Source: Chloroflexota bacterium (GTDB lineage: Bacteria; Chloroflexota; Anaerolineae; VGOG01). From it: DNA of 64,000 nt. This document shows positions 7,399 through 61,790 of this stretch, in pieces; the first letter of the stretch is position 1, and every line of letters begins with the position of its first letter. The notes beneath the pieces were generated by a model that saw only the letters and a list, made by a program, of their open reading frames with translations, ran no database searches and was not told the DNA's origin. Where the stretch lies: assembly GCA_016875995.1 (NCBI GenBank), contig VGOG01000003.1:7650-71649 (forward strand), in the 5' to 3' direction. The position numbers and the translations under genes are program-made.

Positions 7399-8553
7399 AT
7401 GATTTATCTCGACAACGCTGCCACCTCCTGGCCGAAGCCGCCGGGCGTGGCCGAGGCGATGGTTCACTTCATGAACGAGGTGGGGGCTAACCCGGGCCGC
7501 TCTGCTCATCGCCTGGCGGTGGAGTCCGGGCGCATCGTGTACAACACCCGCGAGGCAGTGGCTGAGCTGTTCAACGCGCTGGACCCGCTGCGAGTGGTTT
7601 TCGGCTTCAACGCCACCGAGGCCCTCAACCTGGCCCTGTGCGGCCTGCTGCGCCCAGGCCATCACGTTATCACCAGCAGCATGGAGCACAACTCGGTGAT
7701 GCGCCCCCTGCGCGCCCTGGAGCGGCAAGGGGTAGAGGTGACAGTCGTGCAGTGCTCACCGCAGGGCTTCCTTGATCCATCTGACGTGGAGGCGGCGATC
7801 CGAGTCAACACAGTGATGATCGTCCTCAACCACGCCTCCAACGTGGTGGGCACCATCCTTCCCATCGCCAAGGTGGGGAAGATCGCCCGCCGCTACAACT
7901 TGCTCCTCCTGGTTGATGCCGCCCAAACGGCGGGAGCTTATCCCATGGACGTGGAAGCCGACAAAATTGACCTCCTGGCCTTCACCGGCCACAAGTCCCT
8001 CCTCGGCCCGATGGGAACGGGTGGGCTCTACATCGGTGAGAGGGTGAACCTGAGGGAGTTAGAGCCACTCGTGCGTGGGGGAACGGGAAGCCGCTCTGAG
8101 TTGGAAGAGCAACCCAACTTCCTGCCCGATATGTGCGAGAGCGGCACGATCAACGCCGTGGGGATAGCGGGGCTTCTGGCAGGCGTCCGCTTCGTCTTAG
8201 AGCGAGGCGTGGACGACATACGCCGTCATGAGATGGAGTTGATCCAAAGGCTCATCGAGGGTCTCTCAGCGATAGCGGGTGTTACCGTCCACGGCGGTCA
8301 CGACGCCCGGCGCCAGACGGCCACGGTCTCCTTCAACGTCGTCGGGATGGAGCCTTCGGAAGTGGGGCTACGGCTGGACGAAGAATATAGCATCATGTGT
8401 CGGGTGGGATTGCACTGCGCCCCTGCTGCCCACAAGACTATTGGCACTTTCCCGGTCGGCACGGTGCGCTTCGGGCTGGGAGCCTTGAACACACTGGAGG
8501 AAGTGGACATCGCCGTGGCCGCCGTGGACGCAATTGTCCAGGAGGCACGATGA
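7399..8553 (+). CDS. class V aminotransferase: cysteine desulfurase / selenocysteine lyase family
   Basis: IYLDNAATSWPKP...FTGHKSLLGPMGTGGL (PLP lysine)...HCAPAAH. Confidence 0.9.
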   Translation: MIYLDNAATSWPKPPGVAEAMVHFMNEVGANPGRSAHRLAVESGRIVYNTREAVAELFNALDPLRVVFGFNATEALNLALCGLLRPGHHVITSSMEHNSVMRPLRALERQGVEVTVVQCSPQGFLDPSDVEAAIRVNTVMIVLNHASNVVGTILPIAKVGKIARRYNLLLLVDAAQTAGAYPMDVEADKIDLLAFTGHKSLLGPMGTGGLYIGERVNLRELEPLVRGGTGSRSELEEQPNFLPDMCESGTINAVGIAGLLAGVRFVLERGVDDIRRHEMELIQRLIEGLSAIAGVTVHGGHDARRQTATVSFNVVGMEPSEVGLRLDEEYSIMCRVGLHCAPAAHKTIGTFPVGTVRFGLGALNTLEEVDIAVAAVDAIVQEAR

Positions 8554-9496: not shown

Positions 9497-10543
9497 ATGA
9501 CCCGCGAGGAGATACGTTTAACGGCGCTGACCAGCGCCGCCGGTTGAGCGGCCAAAAGAGGGCCCGAGGCTCTGGCGCAGGTCCTGCGCCCATTACGCGA
9601 CATGTTTCGCGCTGAAGAGTTTCCCAGCCTGCTCGTCGGCCTGGAAGTGAGCGACGACGCCGCCGTCTACAAGATCAACGACGAGATAGCCGTGATCCAG
9701 ACCCTCGACTTCTTCCCGCCCGTGGTGGACGATCCCTACGACTATGGGGCCATCGCTGCCGCCAACGCCATGAGCGACGTCTACGCCATGGGCGGCGAGG
9801 CGGTGCTGGCGCTCAACATCTGCGGCTTCCCCCCTGACCTCCCGTCGGAGATTGTAGCTGAGATCCTGCGGGGCGGGGCGGAGAAAGTTGCCGAGGCGGG
9901 GGGCATCCTGGCTGGCGGCCACACCCTGGACGACAAAGAGCCCAAGTACGGCCTGGCAGTGATGGGTTTCGTCCATCCCGATCGCGTACTGACCAAGGCC
10001 GGCGCCCGGCCCGGCGATGCGCTGGTGCTGACCAAACCGCTTGGAGTGGGCATCATCACCACCGCCCTCAAGGGAGGGGTAGCCGATCCAGGCCACGTGG
10101 AGGCGGCGGTAGAGAGCATGAAAAAGCTGAACCGCCTGGCAGCCCGGCTGATGCAACGCGTGGGGGTGAACGCCTGCACCGACATCACCGGCTTCGCCCT
10201 GCTGGGCCACGCTCAGGAGGTGGCCGAAAAGAGCGGGGTGAGGATACGATTCTATTTGGAGAAACTGCCCTTTTTGGAAGGGGCAAAGGGGTATGCTGAG
10301 AACTGGCTTTTCCCGGGTGGCTCTTGCCGAAATCAGGAGCACTATGCACCTCACGTACATTTTGCCTCGGACATTCCAGAAGATATGCAGATGCTCCTCT
10401 ACACCCCCGAAACGTCGGGAGGACTGCTCATCGCTGTCCCATTTGAGAAACTGGAAGAGCTGACCAATCTCTTTGCCGCCGATGGCCAGGAGCATTGGAC
10501 GATTGGCGAAGTGATGGAGGGAGAAGGGATCGAGGTGGTTTAA
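9497..10543 (+). CDS. selD: selenide, water dikinase (selenophosphate synthetase), selenocysteine-containing; TGA 9545-9547 read as Sec
   Basis: The track ORF 9602-10543 lacks the SelD N-terminus. Reading in frame from ATG 9497 gives MTREEIRLTALTSAAG-U-AAKRGPEALAQVLRPLRDMFRAEEF, which matches the SelD G(C/U)GxK active-site loop. 9602-9497 is 105 nt, so the two parts are in frame. Confidence 0.85.
9574..9590 (+). promoter_or_regulatory. candidate bacterial SECIS apical hairpin
   Basis: GGCGCAG-GUC-CUGCGCC lies 27 nt after the UGA. The apical GCAGGUCCUGC resembles the E. coli fdhF SECIS apex GCAGGUCUGC. Confidence 0.5.
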
Positions 10544-10572
10544 GAAAAGCCTCGTCAAGGTCGAGACGGCCC

Positions 10573-17970: not shown

Positions 17971-19425
17971 ATGGAAATCCTCCACTACCGCTTCATGCAA
18001 AACGCCATCCTGGCCGCGCTGCTGGGAGGGGTAGCTTGCTCAACCATTGGCGTCTTCGTGGTGACCATGGGCATCTCCTTCATCGGCATTTGCATCTCCC
18101 ACGCCGCCTTCGCTGGCGCTCTCCTCGGAATCCTGCTAGGCTTCGATCCCCTGGTGGGTGCCTTCGTCTTCAGCCTGCTGGCAGCGGCGGTCATCGGCCC
18201 CCTGGCCGACCGGGGGGAGTTCAACCCCGATACAGCCATCGGCATCGTCTTCTCCCTGATGCTGGGGCTGGCCTTTCTCTTCATGGGGCTCATGGTGGGT
18301 CCCAGAACCCAGGCCCTGGGCCTCCTGTGGGGCAGCATCCTCACCGTCACCGACGCCAACCTGATCCTGCTGGCCGCTGTCTGCGGGGTGGTGGTGATCC
18401 TGGTACTCCTCTTCTACAAGGAGATCCAGGCGGTTCTCTTCCATCGGGAGATGGCGCTGGCGGTGGGCATCCCGGCCAACGCCATCTTCTACGCCCTGCT
18501 TTTTCTGACGGGAGCCACCATCACCGCCTCCTTCAAGGCCATCGGTGGCCTGCTCATCTTCAGCCTGATCATCAACCCCGCCGCGGCGGCCTACCAGCTC
18601 ACTTACAGCCTGAAGCGGCTCTTTCTCCTCTCCGCCCTCTTCGGCGTCCTCTCCGGCTGGATGGGGCTCTTGGCCTCTTATCTCTTCGACGTCCCCAGTG
18701 GGGCGGTGATCATCATCGTCTCCAGTCTGGTCTTCGCCATCGCCACGCTGGTTTCGCCCAAGAGGAAGGTGAAAAGGTGGCCAGCAATAATGAACCATCG
18801 CCAGTTCTTCGACCAGGCGGCGGCCGAATGGGACGCGCTGGAGGTGGACGAGACCCTGATCCGGCTGCGCGAGATCGTGGCCGGGCTGGACTTCGGGCCG
18901 GGGGCAGCGGTGCTGGATGTGGGATGTGGCACCGGGATACTTTTTCCTTTGCTCCTGGAGGCGATGAATGGAGCAGGGCGGGTTGTGGGCCTGGACATCT
19001 CCGGCGAGATGCTCAGGTGCGCTCAGGCCAAGGGACATCCCGTCGAGTGCGTGCAAGGCGATGCCCAGAGCCTGCCCCTTTCGGACGAGAGCTTCGACTG
19101 GGTGATCTGCAACGCCGTCTTCCCTCACTTCCCGGATAAACTCCGCGCCCTGGGCGAAATTTGCCGCGTGCTGCGCAGCGGCGGCCGGCTGGTCATCTGC
19201 CATACCGCCAGCCGCCAGGCGATCAACGAGTTCCACCGTTCCATGGGTGGGGTCGTGGCTCACGACACCATCCCCGACGAGGGGGAGATGCTACGCTTGC
19301 TGGAAGAGGCCGGGCTGATGGAGGCTCAGGTGTGGGATGAGCCCGACTGTTATCTGATACTGGCCCACCGGAACCAAAGGAGGTCCAGATCATCCTCTAC
19401 GACCGGGAGCTGGCCCTGGCGGTGA
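17971..19425 (+). CDS. ABC-3 metal permease (residues 1-273) fused in one ORF to a class I SAM-dependent methyltransferase
   Basis: N-terminal part: polytopic ZnuB/TroC-like ...SLVFAIATLVSPKRK. From ATG 18790: MNHRQFFDQAAAEWD...VLDVGCGTGILF...GGRLVICH. There is no stop between the two parts. Confidence 0.8.
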   Translation: MEILHYRFMQNAILAALLGGVACSTIGVFVVTMGISFIGICISHAAFAGALLGILLGFDPLVGAFVFSLLAAAVIGPLADRGEFNPDTAIGIVFSLMLGLAFLFMGLMVGPRTQALGLLWGSILTVTDANLILLAAVCGVVVILVLLFYKEIQAVLFHREMALAVGIPANAIFYALLFLTGATITASFKAIGGLLIFSLIINPAAAAYQLTYSLKRLFLLSALFGVLSGWMGLLASYLFDVPSGAVIIIVSSLVFAIATLVSPKRKVKRWPAIMNHRQFFDQAAAEWDALEVDETLIRLREIVAGLDFGPGAAVLDVGCGTGILFPLLLEAMNGAGRVVGLDISGEMLRCAQAKGHPVECVQGDAQSLPLSDESFDWVICNAVFPHFPDKLRALGEICRVLRSGGRLVICHTASRQAINEFHRSMGGVVAHDTIPDEGEMLRLLEEAGLMEAQVWDEPDCYLILAHRNQRRSRSSSTTGSWPWR

Positions 19426-24791: not shown

Positions 24792-25241
24792 ATGGAGCAC
24801 CAGGGAGAAGCAACAGACTTCGAACGCATGGTCACGGAACTGCAAAGGCAGATCATCGAACAGGCGCGGGCACTCTATTCGGCCAAGGTCATTGAGGAGT
24901 TCTACAATCCCAAGAACCTGGGCCGTATGTCTGCGCCTGATGCTCGCGGGAGCGTGCACGGTTGGTGCGGCGACACGATGGAGATCTACCTGCGGCTGAA
25001 CGAGGATAGGATCAAAGAGGCCACTTTTATGACCGACGGCTGTGGACCAACCGTGGCCTGTGGAAGCATGCTAACCACGATGGTGACGGAGATATCGCTG
25101 GAGGAAGCGAGCGAGATCAAACCGGAAGACCTGATAGCTGCTTTGGACGGCTTGCCCGAGGAAAGCCTCCATTGCGCCGAACTGGCGGTGAGCACGCTGC
25201 GAGAGGCAATTGCCAATTGGCATGCAGAAGACAGAGCGTGA
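24792..25241 (+). CDS. NifU/IscU-like Fe-S scaffold domain protein
   Basis: FYNPKNLGRM...GWCGDTMEIYL...FMTDGCGPTVACGS...HCAELAV. Confidence 0.8.
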   Translation: MEHQGEATDFERMVTELQRQIIEQARALYSAKVIEEFYNPKNLGRMSAPDARGSVHGWCGDTMEIYLRLNEDRIKEATFMTDGCGPTVACGSMLTTMVTEISLEEASEIKPEDLIAALDGLPEESLHCAELAVSTLREAIANWHAEDRA

Positions 25242-25891: not shown

Positions 25892-26497
25892 ATGCGACTT
25901 GACCATTTCGACCTCGTCGCCCGTTTCTACGACCGCGTGTTCCACTTCCTGGGCCCGGAGCAGCTCATGAGTCTGCTCCAGGCTCGGCCATTGGAGCGCA
26001 TATTGGACATCGGCGGCGGCACGGGCCGTGTCTCTCAAACCTTCGGCGACGATTACGTGGTGGTCGTTTGTGACCCCTCCTGGGGGATGTTGAGAGAGGC
26101 TGGCCAGAAGCAGATGATCGCTTGCTGCGGCCTGGCTGAGCACCTCCCTTTTGCCAATGGGGCTTTCGACCGCATGGTGATGGTGGACACCTTCCATCAC
26201 CTTCGCGACCAGCACGTCGCCGCAAAGGAGATCCTGCGAGTGTTACGTCCCGGTGGGCGATTGGTCATTGAGGAGCCAGACATTCGTCGCCGAGCGGTTA
26301 AGTGGGCTGCCTTGGGCGAGAGGCTGCTCCTTATGCGCAGCCATTTCTACTCCATCGCCGACCTGGCCCGCATTTTTGAGGAGGCCGGCGCCACAATCGT
26401 GGCCCTGGAGGAGGGACACGATTACAACGTGCGTCTGGCTGTGGAAAAAGTGAAGGAGATGATCAATGGCGAGAAGCAAGGACGAGGTGGCCCGTGA
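25892..26497 (+). CDS. class I SAM-dependent methyltransferase
   Basis: RILDIGGGTGRVS...LRPGGRLVIEEP. Confidence 0.85.
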   Translation: MRLDHFDLVARFYDRVFHFLGPEQLMSLLQARPLERILDIGGGTGRVSQTFGDDYVVVVCDPSWGMLREAGQKQMIACCGLAEHLPFANGAFDRMVMVDTFHHLRDQHVAAKEILRVLRPGGRLVIEEPDIRRRAVKWAALGERLLLMRSHFYSIADLARIFEEAGATIVALEEGHDYNVRLAVEKVKEMINGEKQGRGGP

Positions 26498-26891
26498 GGC
26501 CGGCGATTTGATGAGGAGAGGCTATCACTGAGCCGAGGCGATCATGCTTGCCGTGGGCGGGCACGTTTTGGACGATCTCGACCCCCGTTTCGTGAGGATG
26601 ACCACTGGTTTCGCCGGTGGCGTGGGGGAAAGCAAGCAGGAGATGTGCGGGGCATTCAGCGCCGGGGTGATGCTCATCGGGGCGCTCTACGGGCGCAACA
26701 GCCTGGACGATGATGACCTCCCGTCTCAGCGGCTGGCTACCCGCTACCGCGAGCGCTTCGCCGCCGAGTTGGGCGCTACCCGCTGCGGTCCCCTGTACGA
26801 ACGGATCCATGCCCCTGGCGGACCTGGGTCATGCTCCGTCGTGGTCGAGCGGGCCGCCCGAATCCTTCTGGGACTGCTGGCTGAGGAGTAA
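26466..26891 (+). CDS. C_GCAxxG_C_C family redox protein, selenocysteine-containing; TGA 26529-26531 read as Sec
   Basis: The track ORF 26544 lacks the first conserved Cys. In frame upstream: MARSKDEVAREAGDLMRRGYH-U-AEAIMLAVGGH, so Sec sits where the family has GYNCAEAV. The downstream part has EMCGAFSAGVM, RCGPL and GSCSVVV. Confidence 0.72.
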
Positions 26892-26894
26892 AGG

Positions 26895-27872
26895 ATGAAC
26901 GAGCGAGGTCTGGCTCGATTGGCGCTCTCGGTGCTGATCGGGTTGACTTGTATGTTGGCAATTGGGTGCACGCCGTCGGAGATAGCTTCTCCCGCGCTGG
27001 AGCGGGCGACCGCTACGCCTCCACCCACACCCACCGCCACTCCGGTTCCAACCAGGACGCCCATCCCGACTGCTACCTTAACTCCTGCGCCCACTGCCAC
27101 CCCGACCACGATGCCCAGCCCGACCCCCACGCCTGAGCCGATGCCCACCGAGACCGTCGAAGGGCTGACCATCACCATCGTCTACGACAACAACGAGTAC
27201 GACGAGCGACTGAAAACGGCCTGGGGATTCTCTTGCCTGGTGGAACGAGGCAATCTTATCCTGCTCTTCGACACCGGAGGCGATGCAGATACCCTACTCA
27301 CGAATATGGCGACGCTGGGGCTGGACCCAACCGACGTTGACATCGTCGTTCTATCCCACATCCACGGCGACCACGTCGGCGGGTTGGGAGGCATTCTGGC
27401 TGCCAACCAGGAAATCACCGTATACCTCCCCCGCTCCTTCTCGGCCAGCTTCAAGGAGCAGGCTGGGGCCCATGCCCTCGTGGTAGAGGTGCACGAGCCG
27501 ATGGAGATAGCCGATGGCATCTACACTACCGGGGAGCTTGGAACTGGAATCATCGAGCAGTCGTTGGTGGTGGTCACAGAATCCGGCCTGGTGGTCATCA
27601 CCGGCTGTGCCCATCCTGGCATCACCAACATCGTCGCCAAAGCGAAGGAGATAACCGGCGAAGAGGTCTACCTCGTGATAGGCGGCTTTCATCTAAGCGG
27701 CGTGAGCCAGGCCGTCATCGAGGGCATCGTCGAGGAATTCCGAGAGTTGGGGGTGCAGAGGGTAGCCCCCTGCCACTGCTCCGGCGACCCGGCCCGGAGC
27801 ATCTTCGAGAGGAAATATGGGGAGGACTTTATCCGAGTGGGCGTGGGAAGGGTCCTGGATATCGGGCCATAA
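26895..27872 (+). CDS. MBL-fold metallo-hydrolase (COG1237-type) lipoprotein with a Pro/Thr linker
   Basis: Lipobox LAIGC and a long PTPT linker. LLFDTGGD...VLSHIHGDHVGGL...GCAHPG. Confidence 0.8.
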   Translation: MNERGLARLALSVLIGLTCMLAIGCTPSEIASPALERATATPPPTPTATPVPTRTPIPTATLTPAPTATPTTMPSPTPTPEPMPTETVEGLTITIVYDNNEYDERLKTAWGFSCLVERGNLILLFDTGGDADTLLTNMATLGLDPTDVDIVVLSHIHGDHVGGLGGILAANQEITVYLPRSFSASFKEQAGAHALVVEVHEPMEIADGIYTTGELGTGIIEQSLVVVTESGLVVITGCAHPGITNIVAKAKEITGEEVYLVIGGFHLSGVSQAVIEGIVEEFRELGVQRVAPCHCSGDPARSIFERKYGEDFIRVGVGRVLDIGP

Positions 27873-59923: not shown

Positions 59924-59959
59924 CTTTGCTCCTCCTGGTATAATAGGTTTCGTGGATGG

Positions 59960-61790
59960 TTGACAAAACCATCAACAAGAGTAAAGTATCTCTGCCCCAT
60001 CCTATGAGGTCGGAGCCTGTTGACAAAGACGGGAGACGCACAGGGTTTTCGTTCCGTTCCGGCCTCACCGACGGGGACACTCATTATCAGGAGGGACCAG
60101 TCATGAGCCGAAAACGACGTACTCACCTACGAGGCAAACGAGGGCAAGCCTTTGCCGACCAGATTCGAGGCATTCCGTTGGACCGCATCCTGTGCGTCTC
60201 CATAGACGTTCACAAGTACTTTCACGTGGTCATGATTCACAACGCGCTGGGCGAGATCGTGACCCCCACCTTCGAGATCGACATCTTTCAGACTGGGTTC
60301 GAGCAGTTGTGTCGAGCGATAGACGAAGCTATTGCTCGGACGAAGGCCCAGGTGGTCTTGACGGGCATGGAACCAACGGGCCACTACTTTGAGAACCTGG
60401 CGCGACACCTGCGTCAACGACCACAGCCAGTGACGTTGATCAACAGCTACGCTGTCAGGAAGAATCGAGACCAACAGATGATGCACCACGAGAAGGACGA
60501 CGAGATTGACACGGCGTCTATCGGCGACCTGCTGCGACGCGGAGAAGGCACGCCTTTCAAGCCCGCCAGCGGGGTCTACCTGCAACTGCAACACCTGGAC
60601 CGCGTTCGCCTCAGCAAGATCAAGATACGCACCATGTTGCAGAATCAGGTGCTCGGCCACCTGGACCGGATCTTCCCTGGCCTGGTCATCATCGCCAAAG
60701 AGGCCAAAGCTCGCTATACCCCTCTGTTCGCCACCGATTTCTGGAAGTGTCAGACGCTGCAGCATCTGATCCGGGTGTGTCCTGACCCGCGCCAGCTGGC
60801 GGCCATGTCCCCGCAGGACTTGATAGATGCTTTCCACGCTCACCACTATGCCATGGGCCCCATCACCGCCGCCAAGATCATCGCCTACGCCCAGAAAGTG
60901 CTCCTGCCCGATGCCGAGTTGATTGCCATCCGCTGCGAGTTATTGGCTCACGACTTGGCTTTGCTGGAGGCAGTCGAAGGCCATATTGCCCAACTCGAAG
61001 ACCGCCTGCGCACCTTGCTGGCTGAAACGCCGTACCAGATATGGGTCAAGCTCAAGGGCCTCAGTGACATCCAGGTAGCCAGCCTGGCGGCGGCCATCGG
61101 CGACCCGGCCAACTACTCCTACGCCGCTCAAGTCTTCCGTCGTAGTGGCTTGGTCAGTGGACGCGATGACTCTGGCATTCGTCAGCGCAAGGGCAAAGGC
61201 AAGCGGGTCGTCAAGGTCGGCGACGTTTATCTGCGCCGCGCTTTGATGAATGCCCTTGCGACCTTGATTCTGCATCAACCCGTCTTGCAGCAGTATCTCA
61301 ACAAGCTCAGGAAATCCAAACCTGCCGGAGTCGCCCGCGTGGCCACAGCCCGCCGCGCCACCGGTATCCTGTGGGCCACACTGCGTGACCAACAGGCCAA
61401 GACGCTGATCCTCAAGAAAGGGGCTGCCATGTAGACAACCACCATGACCAATGCGTCGCGGACCCAACTCTGCAGGCGTGGTCTTGACCTTTGAATCGTT
61501 GCCTTGGACAACGCGCTAGGCGGACCGGGGGCCGGCCGCCAACCTCCTTGAGGCTAACCAGACCCTCGCACAGAAGCTTGGACCGCCCCTGGCCCGTGGC
61601 GCTGAAACCCTGGATAACGTAAGGTGAGCCCCTGCCTTCGGCACGCTCGAATACCAGGATAGGGATAACAGTGCTCGCTGCTTCTTGGCTGTCGCTGGCA
61701 AGTTGTCCCTGGCGGCTGTTCGGTTGTTAAGTATCGCGTGTGCAGTGCATAGTTCGGTCGGCAACTCGAAAAAATCGCGTTTTTCAGAGC
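59960..61790 (+). mobile_element. IS110-family insertion sequence (boundaries approximate)
   Basis: One transposase gene flanked by about 140 nt upstream and more than 350 nt downstream of non-coding sequence. I saw no terminal inverted repeats, as expected for IS110. Confidence 0.4.
60103..61434 (+). CDS. IS110 family transposase / DEDD recombinase
   Basis: VSIDVHKYFH, GMEPTGHYF, DEIDT. C-terminal part: LKGLSDIQVASLAAAIGDP...RQRKGKGKR. RBS AGGAGG. The track start 59956 is an upstream extension. Confidence 0.9.
   Translation: MSRKRRTHLRGKRGQAFADQIRGIPLDRILCVSIDVHKYFHVVMIHNALGEIVTPTFEIDIFQTGFEQLCRAIDEAIARTKAQVVLTGMEPTGHYFENLARHLRQRPQPVTLINSYAVRKNRDQQMMHHEKDDEIDTASIGDLLRRGEGTPFKPASGVYLQLQHLDRVRLSKIKIRTMLQNQVLGHLDRIFPGLVIIAKEAKARYTPLFATDFWKCQTLQHLIRVCPDPRQLAAMSPQDLIDAFHAHHYAMGPITAAKIIAYAQKVLLPDAELIAIRCELLAHDLALLEAVEGHIAQLEDRLRTLLAETPYQIWVKLKGLSDIQVASLAAAIGDPANYSYAAQVFRRSGLVSGRDDSGIRQRKGKGKRVVKVGDVYLRRALMNALATLILHQPVLQQYLNKLRKSKPAGVARVATARRATGILWATLRDQQAKTLILKKGAAM

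Follow-up and report, generated by a model that had tools for sequence, protein, structure and literature searches.

Positions 26466 to 26891 (forward strand) of the 64-kb stretch of DNA analysed here (the window), which comes from a lake-water bacterium of the Anaerolineae, very probably encode a small selenocysteine-containing protein that gene callers have shortened at an in-frame TGA. Judged from sequence comparison, there is little reason to doubt that this TGA is a genuine selenocysteine (Sec) codon, residue U22, and that the region is one selenoprotein gene with a SECIS inside its coding sequence. Five observations carry this reading: the product belongs to the C_GCAxxG_C_C family, its Sec pairs with Cys in homologues, the TGA is conserved, the codons upstream of it are under coding constraint, and a conserved, covarying hairpin follows it.

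ORF calling under table 11 gives a 115-aa ORF at 26544-26891. Read from the ATG at 26466, with a Shine-Dalgarno sequence legible 7 nt before it (AAGGAG, 26453-26458), the frame gives MARSKDEVAREAGDLMRRGYH, the TGA at 26529-26531 (the only one in the frame), AEAIMLAVGGH, and so on up to the TAA at 26889-26891, 141 residues with Sec at residue 22. The start position is kept in relatives, with in-frame stops upstream of it. The original prediction had extended the ORF at 26544-26891 upstream, in frame, across the TGA, and both sequence and frame are as it described. The full product matches PF09719 from the first position of the model (68.1 bits against a cutoff of 27, E 9.4e-19, residues 20-134 on model positions 1-115 of 118) and also matches TIGR01909 of NCBIfam (54.2 bits, cutoff 47.4, positions 1-117 of 120). 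At the four cysteine positions of the family (C ... CGAxxxG ... C ... C) stand U22, C61 (in MCGAFSAG), C107, and C123, which are invariant in 18 aligned sequences and also in a broader set of 18. Contigs from four independently assembled lake-water runs (24-80x depth) carry the stretch 26400-26700 without a single difference, so the TGA is not an assembly error.

What occupies the TGA column elsewhere in the family was read from a full HMMER search of 1.84 billion representatives, which found 1403 C_GCAxxG_C_C family members. The column was checked in the best 150 of these (representatives at 50% identity) together with P0003 and P0119, and 97 sequences cover it. Cys occupies the column in 94 of these 97 full-length representatives, in the context G-Y-H/N-C-A/S-E-A, so that the TGA does stand at the first conserved Cys of the family, as had been proposed before the alignment was made. 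The three others have one 'W', one Gly, and one Arg. The 'W', in P0185, is a TGA codon (L104:681-683) that the gene caller translated under table 4; since this locus also carries its own AU-rich version of the hairpin described below, P0185 is probably a Sec form as well. The full-length homologue P0134 (L105:495-497) does have a Gly codon, GGT, at the column and is a rare member without the first Cys and without the hairpin. In an orthologue on a Logan contig (L003:350-352, 75% identical, with a metallo-beta-lactamase-fold (MBL) neighbour), the codon is CGA (Arg), one base from TGA; its stem has a G.G mismatch and its loop is GUA, which possibly reflects a recent loss of Sec, or else an error in a single run. 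A further 41 representatives among the best 150 of 1403 begin exactly after the column (MLAVG...). All three of these that were checked at the DNA level (36-41% identity) have an in-frame TGA at the column, preceded by the conserved context G-Y/F-H/R.

The TGA itself is constant. It is found at the column in 16 of 16 species-level relatives from GTDB (all MAGs of Anaerolineae/Chloroflexota, 49-85% identity), in every metagenome locus that could be placed (80 of 80), and in the four distant relatives examined at the DNA level. The metagenome loci were recruited by a peptide pattern far from the TGA site, because a pattern with 'HC' cannot match a TGA codon, and the count is thereby independent of the site. 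With the window included, the codon is TGA in 17 of 17 sequences of the GTDB alignment and 97 of 97 of a larger DNA alignment, never TAA or TAG, and the same is true of L104. Upstream, from residue -15 to residue -1 before the TGA, the amino acids are kept in the 17 sequences while third positions vary freely (Ala-10 is GCC in 6, GCT in 10, and GCG in 1; the Tyr is TAT in 9 and TAC in 5; the His is CAC in 11 and CAT in 5). Such a pattern in these 15 codons is typical of translated sequence under purifying selection, and all 21 codons upstream of the TGA evolve like coding sequence, down to 49% identity. The database entries show nothing of this: all but two of the 120 closest proteins are annotated as 103-126 aa (one of 140 aa), starting after the TGA.

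TGA also serves as a stop in this organism. The methyltransferase gene just upstream (25892-26497) ends with one at 26495-26497, homologues aligning to its last residue, and several orthologues of the selenoprotein themselves terminate with TGA; a reassigned code is thereby excluded. Evidence that UGA is decoded as Sec comes from selD (9497-10546, forward strand), which has an in-frame TGA of its own at 9545-9547 (SAAG-U-AAK) and scores 380.6 bits on TIGR00476 when read through it. An organism whose own SelD depends on Sec should be able to decode UGA in this way, in line with the earlier suggestion that SelD in the window points to active Sec decoding. The selD gene has a GC-rich hairpin of 7 bp at 9574-9590 (GGCGCAG-GUC-CUGCGCC), with 33 nt between the UGA and the loop; the loop begins with G-U, like that of the selenoprotein at 26466-26891. 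Near selD, in a selenium-related cluster, lies a gene for a cysteine desulfurase family protein (7399-8553; TIGR01977, 478 bits; 388 bits on the model for selenocysteine lyase SclA, cutoff 525). No tRNA, SelA, or SelB was found within the 64-kb window.

The candidate SECIS is a hairpin at 26545-26563 on the forward strand, with an 8-bp stem (26545-26552 with 26556-26563) and an apical loop GUG (26553-26555), 21 nt separating the UGA from the loop. RNAalifold on 17 sequences gave this as the single structure (columns 17-24 with 28-35, loop GUG). Covariation within those 17 sequences was not significant (146 of 500 shuffles). In the alignment of 97 DNA sequences (77 distinct), 98.4% of the hairpin cells are paired, and five of the eight pairs show compensatory, double-sided changes; on four of five measures none of 500 shuffles reached the observed value, and on the fifth one did, in a test that ignores phylogeny. 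Slid registers of the same hairpin pair at just 34-50%. Much of the conservation is confounded with that of the peptide MLAVGG, which the same bases encode, but the pairing persists where the peptide has changed: L021, with MLFAVGKY, has UAUUUGCC-GUG-GGCAAAUA, and L104, with IVIAVGNK, has UUAUUGCC-GUU-GGCAAUAA. Codon choice within the hairpin is narrow (Ala is GCC in 17 of 17, Val is GTG in 15 of 17), with a mean third-position entropy of 0.60 against 1.09 elsewhere (permutation P=0.005), the second lowest of 41 contiguous blocks.

Checked against the four features of bacterial SECIS elements taken from Fig. 2 of PMC13188914, a comparison that the original prediction had proposed, the hairpin has all of them (a 3-nt loop beginning with G-U, an 8-bp stem, 21 nt between UGA and loop, and a folding energy of -10.9 kcal/mol). 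Its stems differ from the two that had been put forward, at 26537-26552 and 26552-26565; pairing in those reaches 84% and 93% of cells, without excess covariation in either the 17 or the 97 sequences, and they were given up. The fixed structure has only -1.3 kcal/mol in the Cys form L020 (z +1.1), which is without the hairpin, and -0.8 in the Gly form L105. Folding energy compared with shuffles is weak evidence in such G+C-rich sequence, and it is only modestly better than theirs (z -2.6 for a 45-nt stretch and -0.25 for one of 62 nt). Rfam returned no SECIS-type match for the whole window at gathering thresholds, nor for 26400-26700 at E<=10, where chance snoRNA matches alone appeared (E>=0.8).

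Might the real gene nonetheless be the 115-aa ORF from the ATG at 26544, the TGA ending a short unrelated ORF or lying in an untranslated leader, in a clade that simply has no first Cys? This is what table-11 gene calling yields and how nearly all of the closest proteins are annotated. The 21 upstream codons, however, are conserved as protein while varying synonymously, with their residues the match to the Pfam model begins at its position 1, the in-frame stop of the 97 aligned sequences and L104 is TGA without exception, and a good Shine-Dalgarno sequence precedes ATG 26466, so such a reading is very improbable. The original prediction had named an internal ATG start, with the motif missing from close relatives, as the finding that would count against it, and the relatives keep both the in-frame TGA and a conserved N-terminal extension (16 from GTDB, 80 from metagenomes, and 4 distant ones). 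A stop inside a conserved domain could also mark a pseudogene with a nonsense mutation, but some 100 loci (36-85% identity) all carry the identical TGA between intact frames, which makes the chance of this negligible. It is just as hard to credit as the 115-aa gene that UGA is read here as Trp, Gly, or Cys, through stop-codon reassignment or near-cognate suppression. One homologue's database entry is indeed translated with TGA as W, yet TGA terminates the overlapping methyltransferase where its homologues end, as well as several orthologues; the TGA column pairs specifically with Cys; a SECIS-type hairpin goes with the TGA, and the Cys, Gly, and Arg forms lack it; and SelD is present with a UGA of its own.

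Somewhat more room, though still not much, is left for a real selenoprotein whose functional SECIS is different or larger, the hairpin at 26545-26563 reflecting nothing beyond amino-acid and codon-usage constraint; we consider this unlikely. Its bases do encode the highly conserved MLAVGG, and the minimum free energy (MFE) fold of the window adds a lower stem (26533-26540 with 26564-26571) that brings the stability to -20 kcal/mol. Against it, only 70% of the lower-stem cells are paired when relatives are compared, for which reason this stem was left out of the SECIS, whereas pairing in the apical hairpin is kept by compensatory changes where the peptide changes (in L021 and L104), and variation at synonymous sites is suppressed there.

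On the preferred reading, a single Sec-containing gene at 26466-26891, the product would be a 141-residue cytoplasmic protein of the C_GCAxxG_C_C family in which the UGA at 26529-26531 is decoded as Sec, in place of the first conserved Cys. Decoding would be directed by the SECIS hairpin within the coding sequence, whose bases double as codons for M-L-A-V-G-G-H. If the known bacterial pathway applies here too, the apex of the hairpin would be bound by SelB with its Sec-tRNA(Sec), and Sec would be delivered as the ribosome arrives at the UGA; SelD, encoded 17 kb upstream, would provide the selenium donor.

The gene sits in a run of genes in the order NifU_N (IscU-like), NUDIX, methyltransferase, selenoprotein, MBL-fold protein, CoA_binding_2, ferredoxin, and radical SAM; beyond NifU_N upstream lie Mrp/NUBPL, two NifX-like proteins, and a ferredoxin. 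The stop codon of the SAM-dependent methyltransferase lies 32 nt inside the selenoprotein coding sequence (translational coupling), and the MBL-fold gene (26895-27872, forward strand) starts 3 nt after the selenoprotein stop. Of the 16 GTDB relatives, 8 have the methyltransferase immediately upstream, and in 7 the two genes overlap. The gene for the NifU_N Fe-S scaffold (24792-25241, forward strand) recurs as an upstream neighbour, beyond the methyltransferase or further, in the GTDB relatives L004, L006, and L007. Sufficient flanking sequence was available at 69 metagenome loci. As upstream neighbour, 24 of them have the methyltransferase, 22 NifU_N, and 1 NUDIX, while the other 22 have none of the genes tested; as downstream neighbour, 26 have MBL, 5 NUDIX, 4 CoA_binding_2, and 1 NifU_N, and 33 have none of these genes. 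The MBL neighbour is found also downstream of the Cys orthologue (P0119, locus L020) and at the Arg-form locus. Two distant Sec forms, L022 and L023, have other neighbours (phosphotriesterase-family, creatininase, and URO-D-family genes), so the gene context is not conserved across the C_GCAxxG_C_C family. An association of the selenoprotein with Fe-S scaffold genes is suggestive only. The MBL-fold protein begins (26895-27000) with MNERGLARLALSVLIGLTCMLAIGCTPSE, which resembles a signal peptide with a lipobox-like Cys at its end; unlike the selenoprotein, then, it may be exported. Elsewhere in the window, 59956-61434 is an ORF for an IS110-family transposase (NF033542, 158.6 bits, above cutoff).

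An AlphaFold2 model built on an 18-sequence alignment is all-alpha, with seven helices (pLDDT 94.9, pTM 0.90). Helices start at residues 22, 62, 107, and 123; three of these thus begin with U22, C107, and C123 themselves, and the other directly follows C61. Just two residues of the model, 60 and 106, form beta-bridges; they flank C61 and C107, which are therefore probably adjacent in the predicted fold. Invariant in the 18 sequences are U22, E24, A25, G51, G52, C61-G62-A63, G67, G72, G76, R77, F98, C107, C123, and E128. A sequence search of the PDB gave no match at E<=1, and Foldseek with this confident model gave nothing in the PDB below E=1.9. The model is consistent with U22, C61, C107, and C123 forming a single redox-active or metal- or cluster-binding site, in which Sec would serve as reactive nucleophile or ligand. 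A more specific role can be imagined, doubtful as it is: the Sec-containing protein might be a dedicated partner of the recurring IscU-like (NifU_N) scaffold and the SAM methyltransferase, with Sec22 and the three Cys, at the converging N-termini of helices, as the reactive centre in an all-alpha fold not described before. It could then carry or reduce metal-sulfur or metal-selenium species (perhaps as a persulfide/perselenide or cluster relay, or in metalloid handling). If so, this would be the first biochemical role for a widespread family without a solved structure.

Sec forms of the family were known. Two reviews list C-GCAxxG-C-C as a prokaryotic selenoprotein family (PMC9312934, PMC13188914); the tables of the second divide it into 'form 1' and 'form 2' (listed reference sequences MGD8741185.1, WP_012158890.1), which go back to Zhang & Gladyshev 2007 and 2008. 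With the NCBIfam name of TIGR01909, 'C-GCAxxG-C-C family (seleno)protein', these sources bear out what the original prediction had supposed of Sec forms in this family. The tables give no motif for the Sec position that defines each form, and neither the 2007 nor the 2008 paper calls the family by this name. The protein of the window resembles the known members in scoring above the curated cutoffs of PF09719 and TIGR01909, in its length of about 140 aa, in its four conserved Cys positions, and in its one Sec; it differs in that the members described here are a clade of Anaerolineae/Chloroflexota annotated in public records as truncated proteins of 113-126 aa.

The hairpin, for its part, shares with the bSECISearch consensus and with the SECIS of E. 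coli fdhF its place in the ORF just after the UGA, a small G-U loop, a spacing within 16-37 nt, and a stable upper stem. The stem of the fdhF element has a bulged U, whereas the hairpin of the window has none and is a GUG triloop closed by C-G.

Two other systems come close without fitting. DVU_1555 and DVU_1556 (NF045669 and NF045667) likewise pair a C-GCAxxG-C-C protein with a neighbouring SAM methyltransferase, but the proteins of the window score 46.4 bits (cutoff 103) and 60.2 bits (cutoff 155), far under the cutoffs, and so are not members of those families; moreover, no more than roughly one in three metagenome loci pairs the gene with a methyltransferase. The best match in the window to the DVU_1556-family model (89.9 bits, cutoff 155) is the methyltransferase domain (residues 300-458) of a single ORF at 17971-19425 that begins with a metal ABC-transporter permease domain (residues 3-267); this methyltransferase domain also matches models of arsenite-methyltransferase selenoproteins. 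The HUGP/GUXX-star fusion selenoprotein (NF045501) aligns through its N-terminal half to residues 4-94 (38.6 bits), and its name indicates an H-U motif where the protein of the window has GYH-U. The score is far under the cutoff of 325, however, and the protein, with 141 aa as against about 236 for the two-domain fusion, has no second domain and no C-terminal Sec.

Since the family is already listed among selenoprotein families, the established picture is unchanged, and with its Sec forms on record since 2007-2008, the find is correct but fairly ordinary. What is new, and well supported, are the unannotated members from Anaerolineae and a newly defined SECIS for the clade, backed by covariation, which could help improve SECIS models for Chloroflexota. 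A whole clade of the family is stored in the databases truncated at the N-terminus, without its probable active-site residue, a fault that touches not only nearly all of the 120 closest entries but also about 40 of the best 150 clusters at 50% identity. For the organism, it means that a lake-water member of the Anaerolineae very probably reads UGA as Sec in two proteins or more. For the family, which has neither a solved structure nor a structural relative, Sec at the position of the first Cys would mark that residue as the reactive one.
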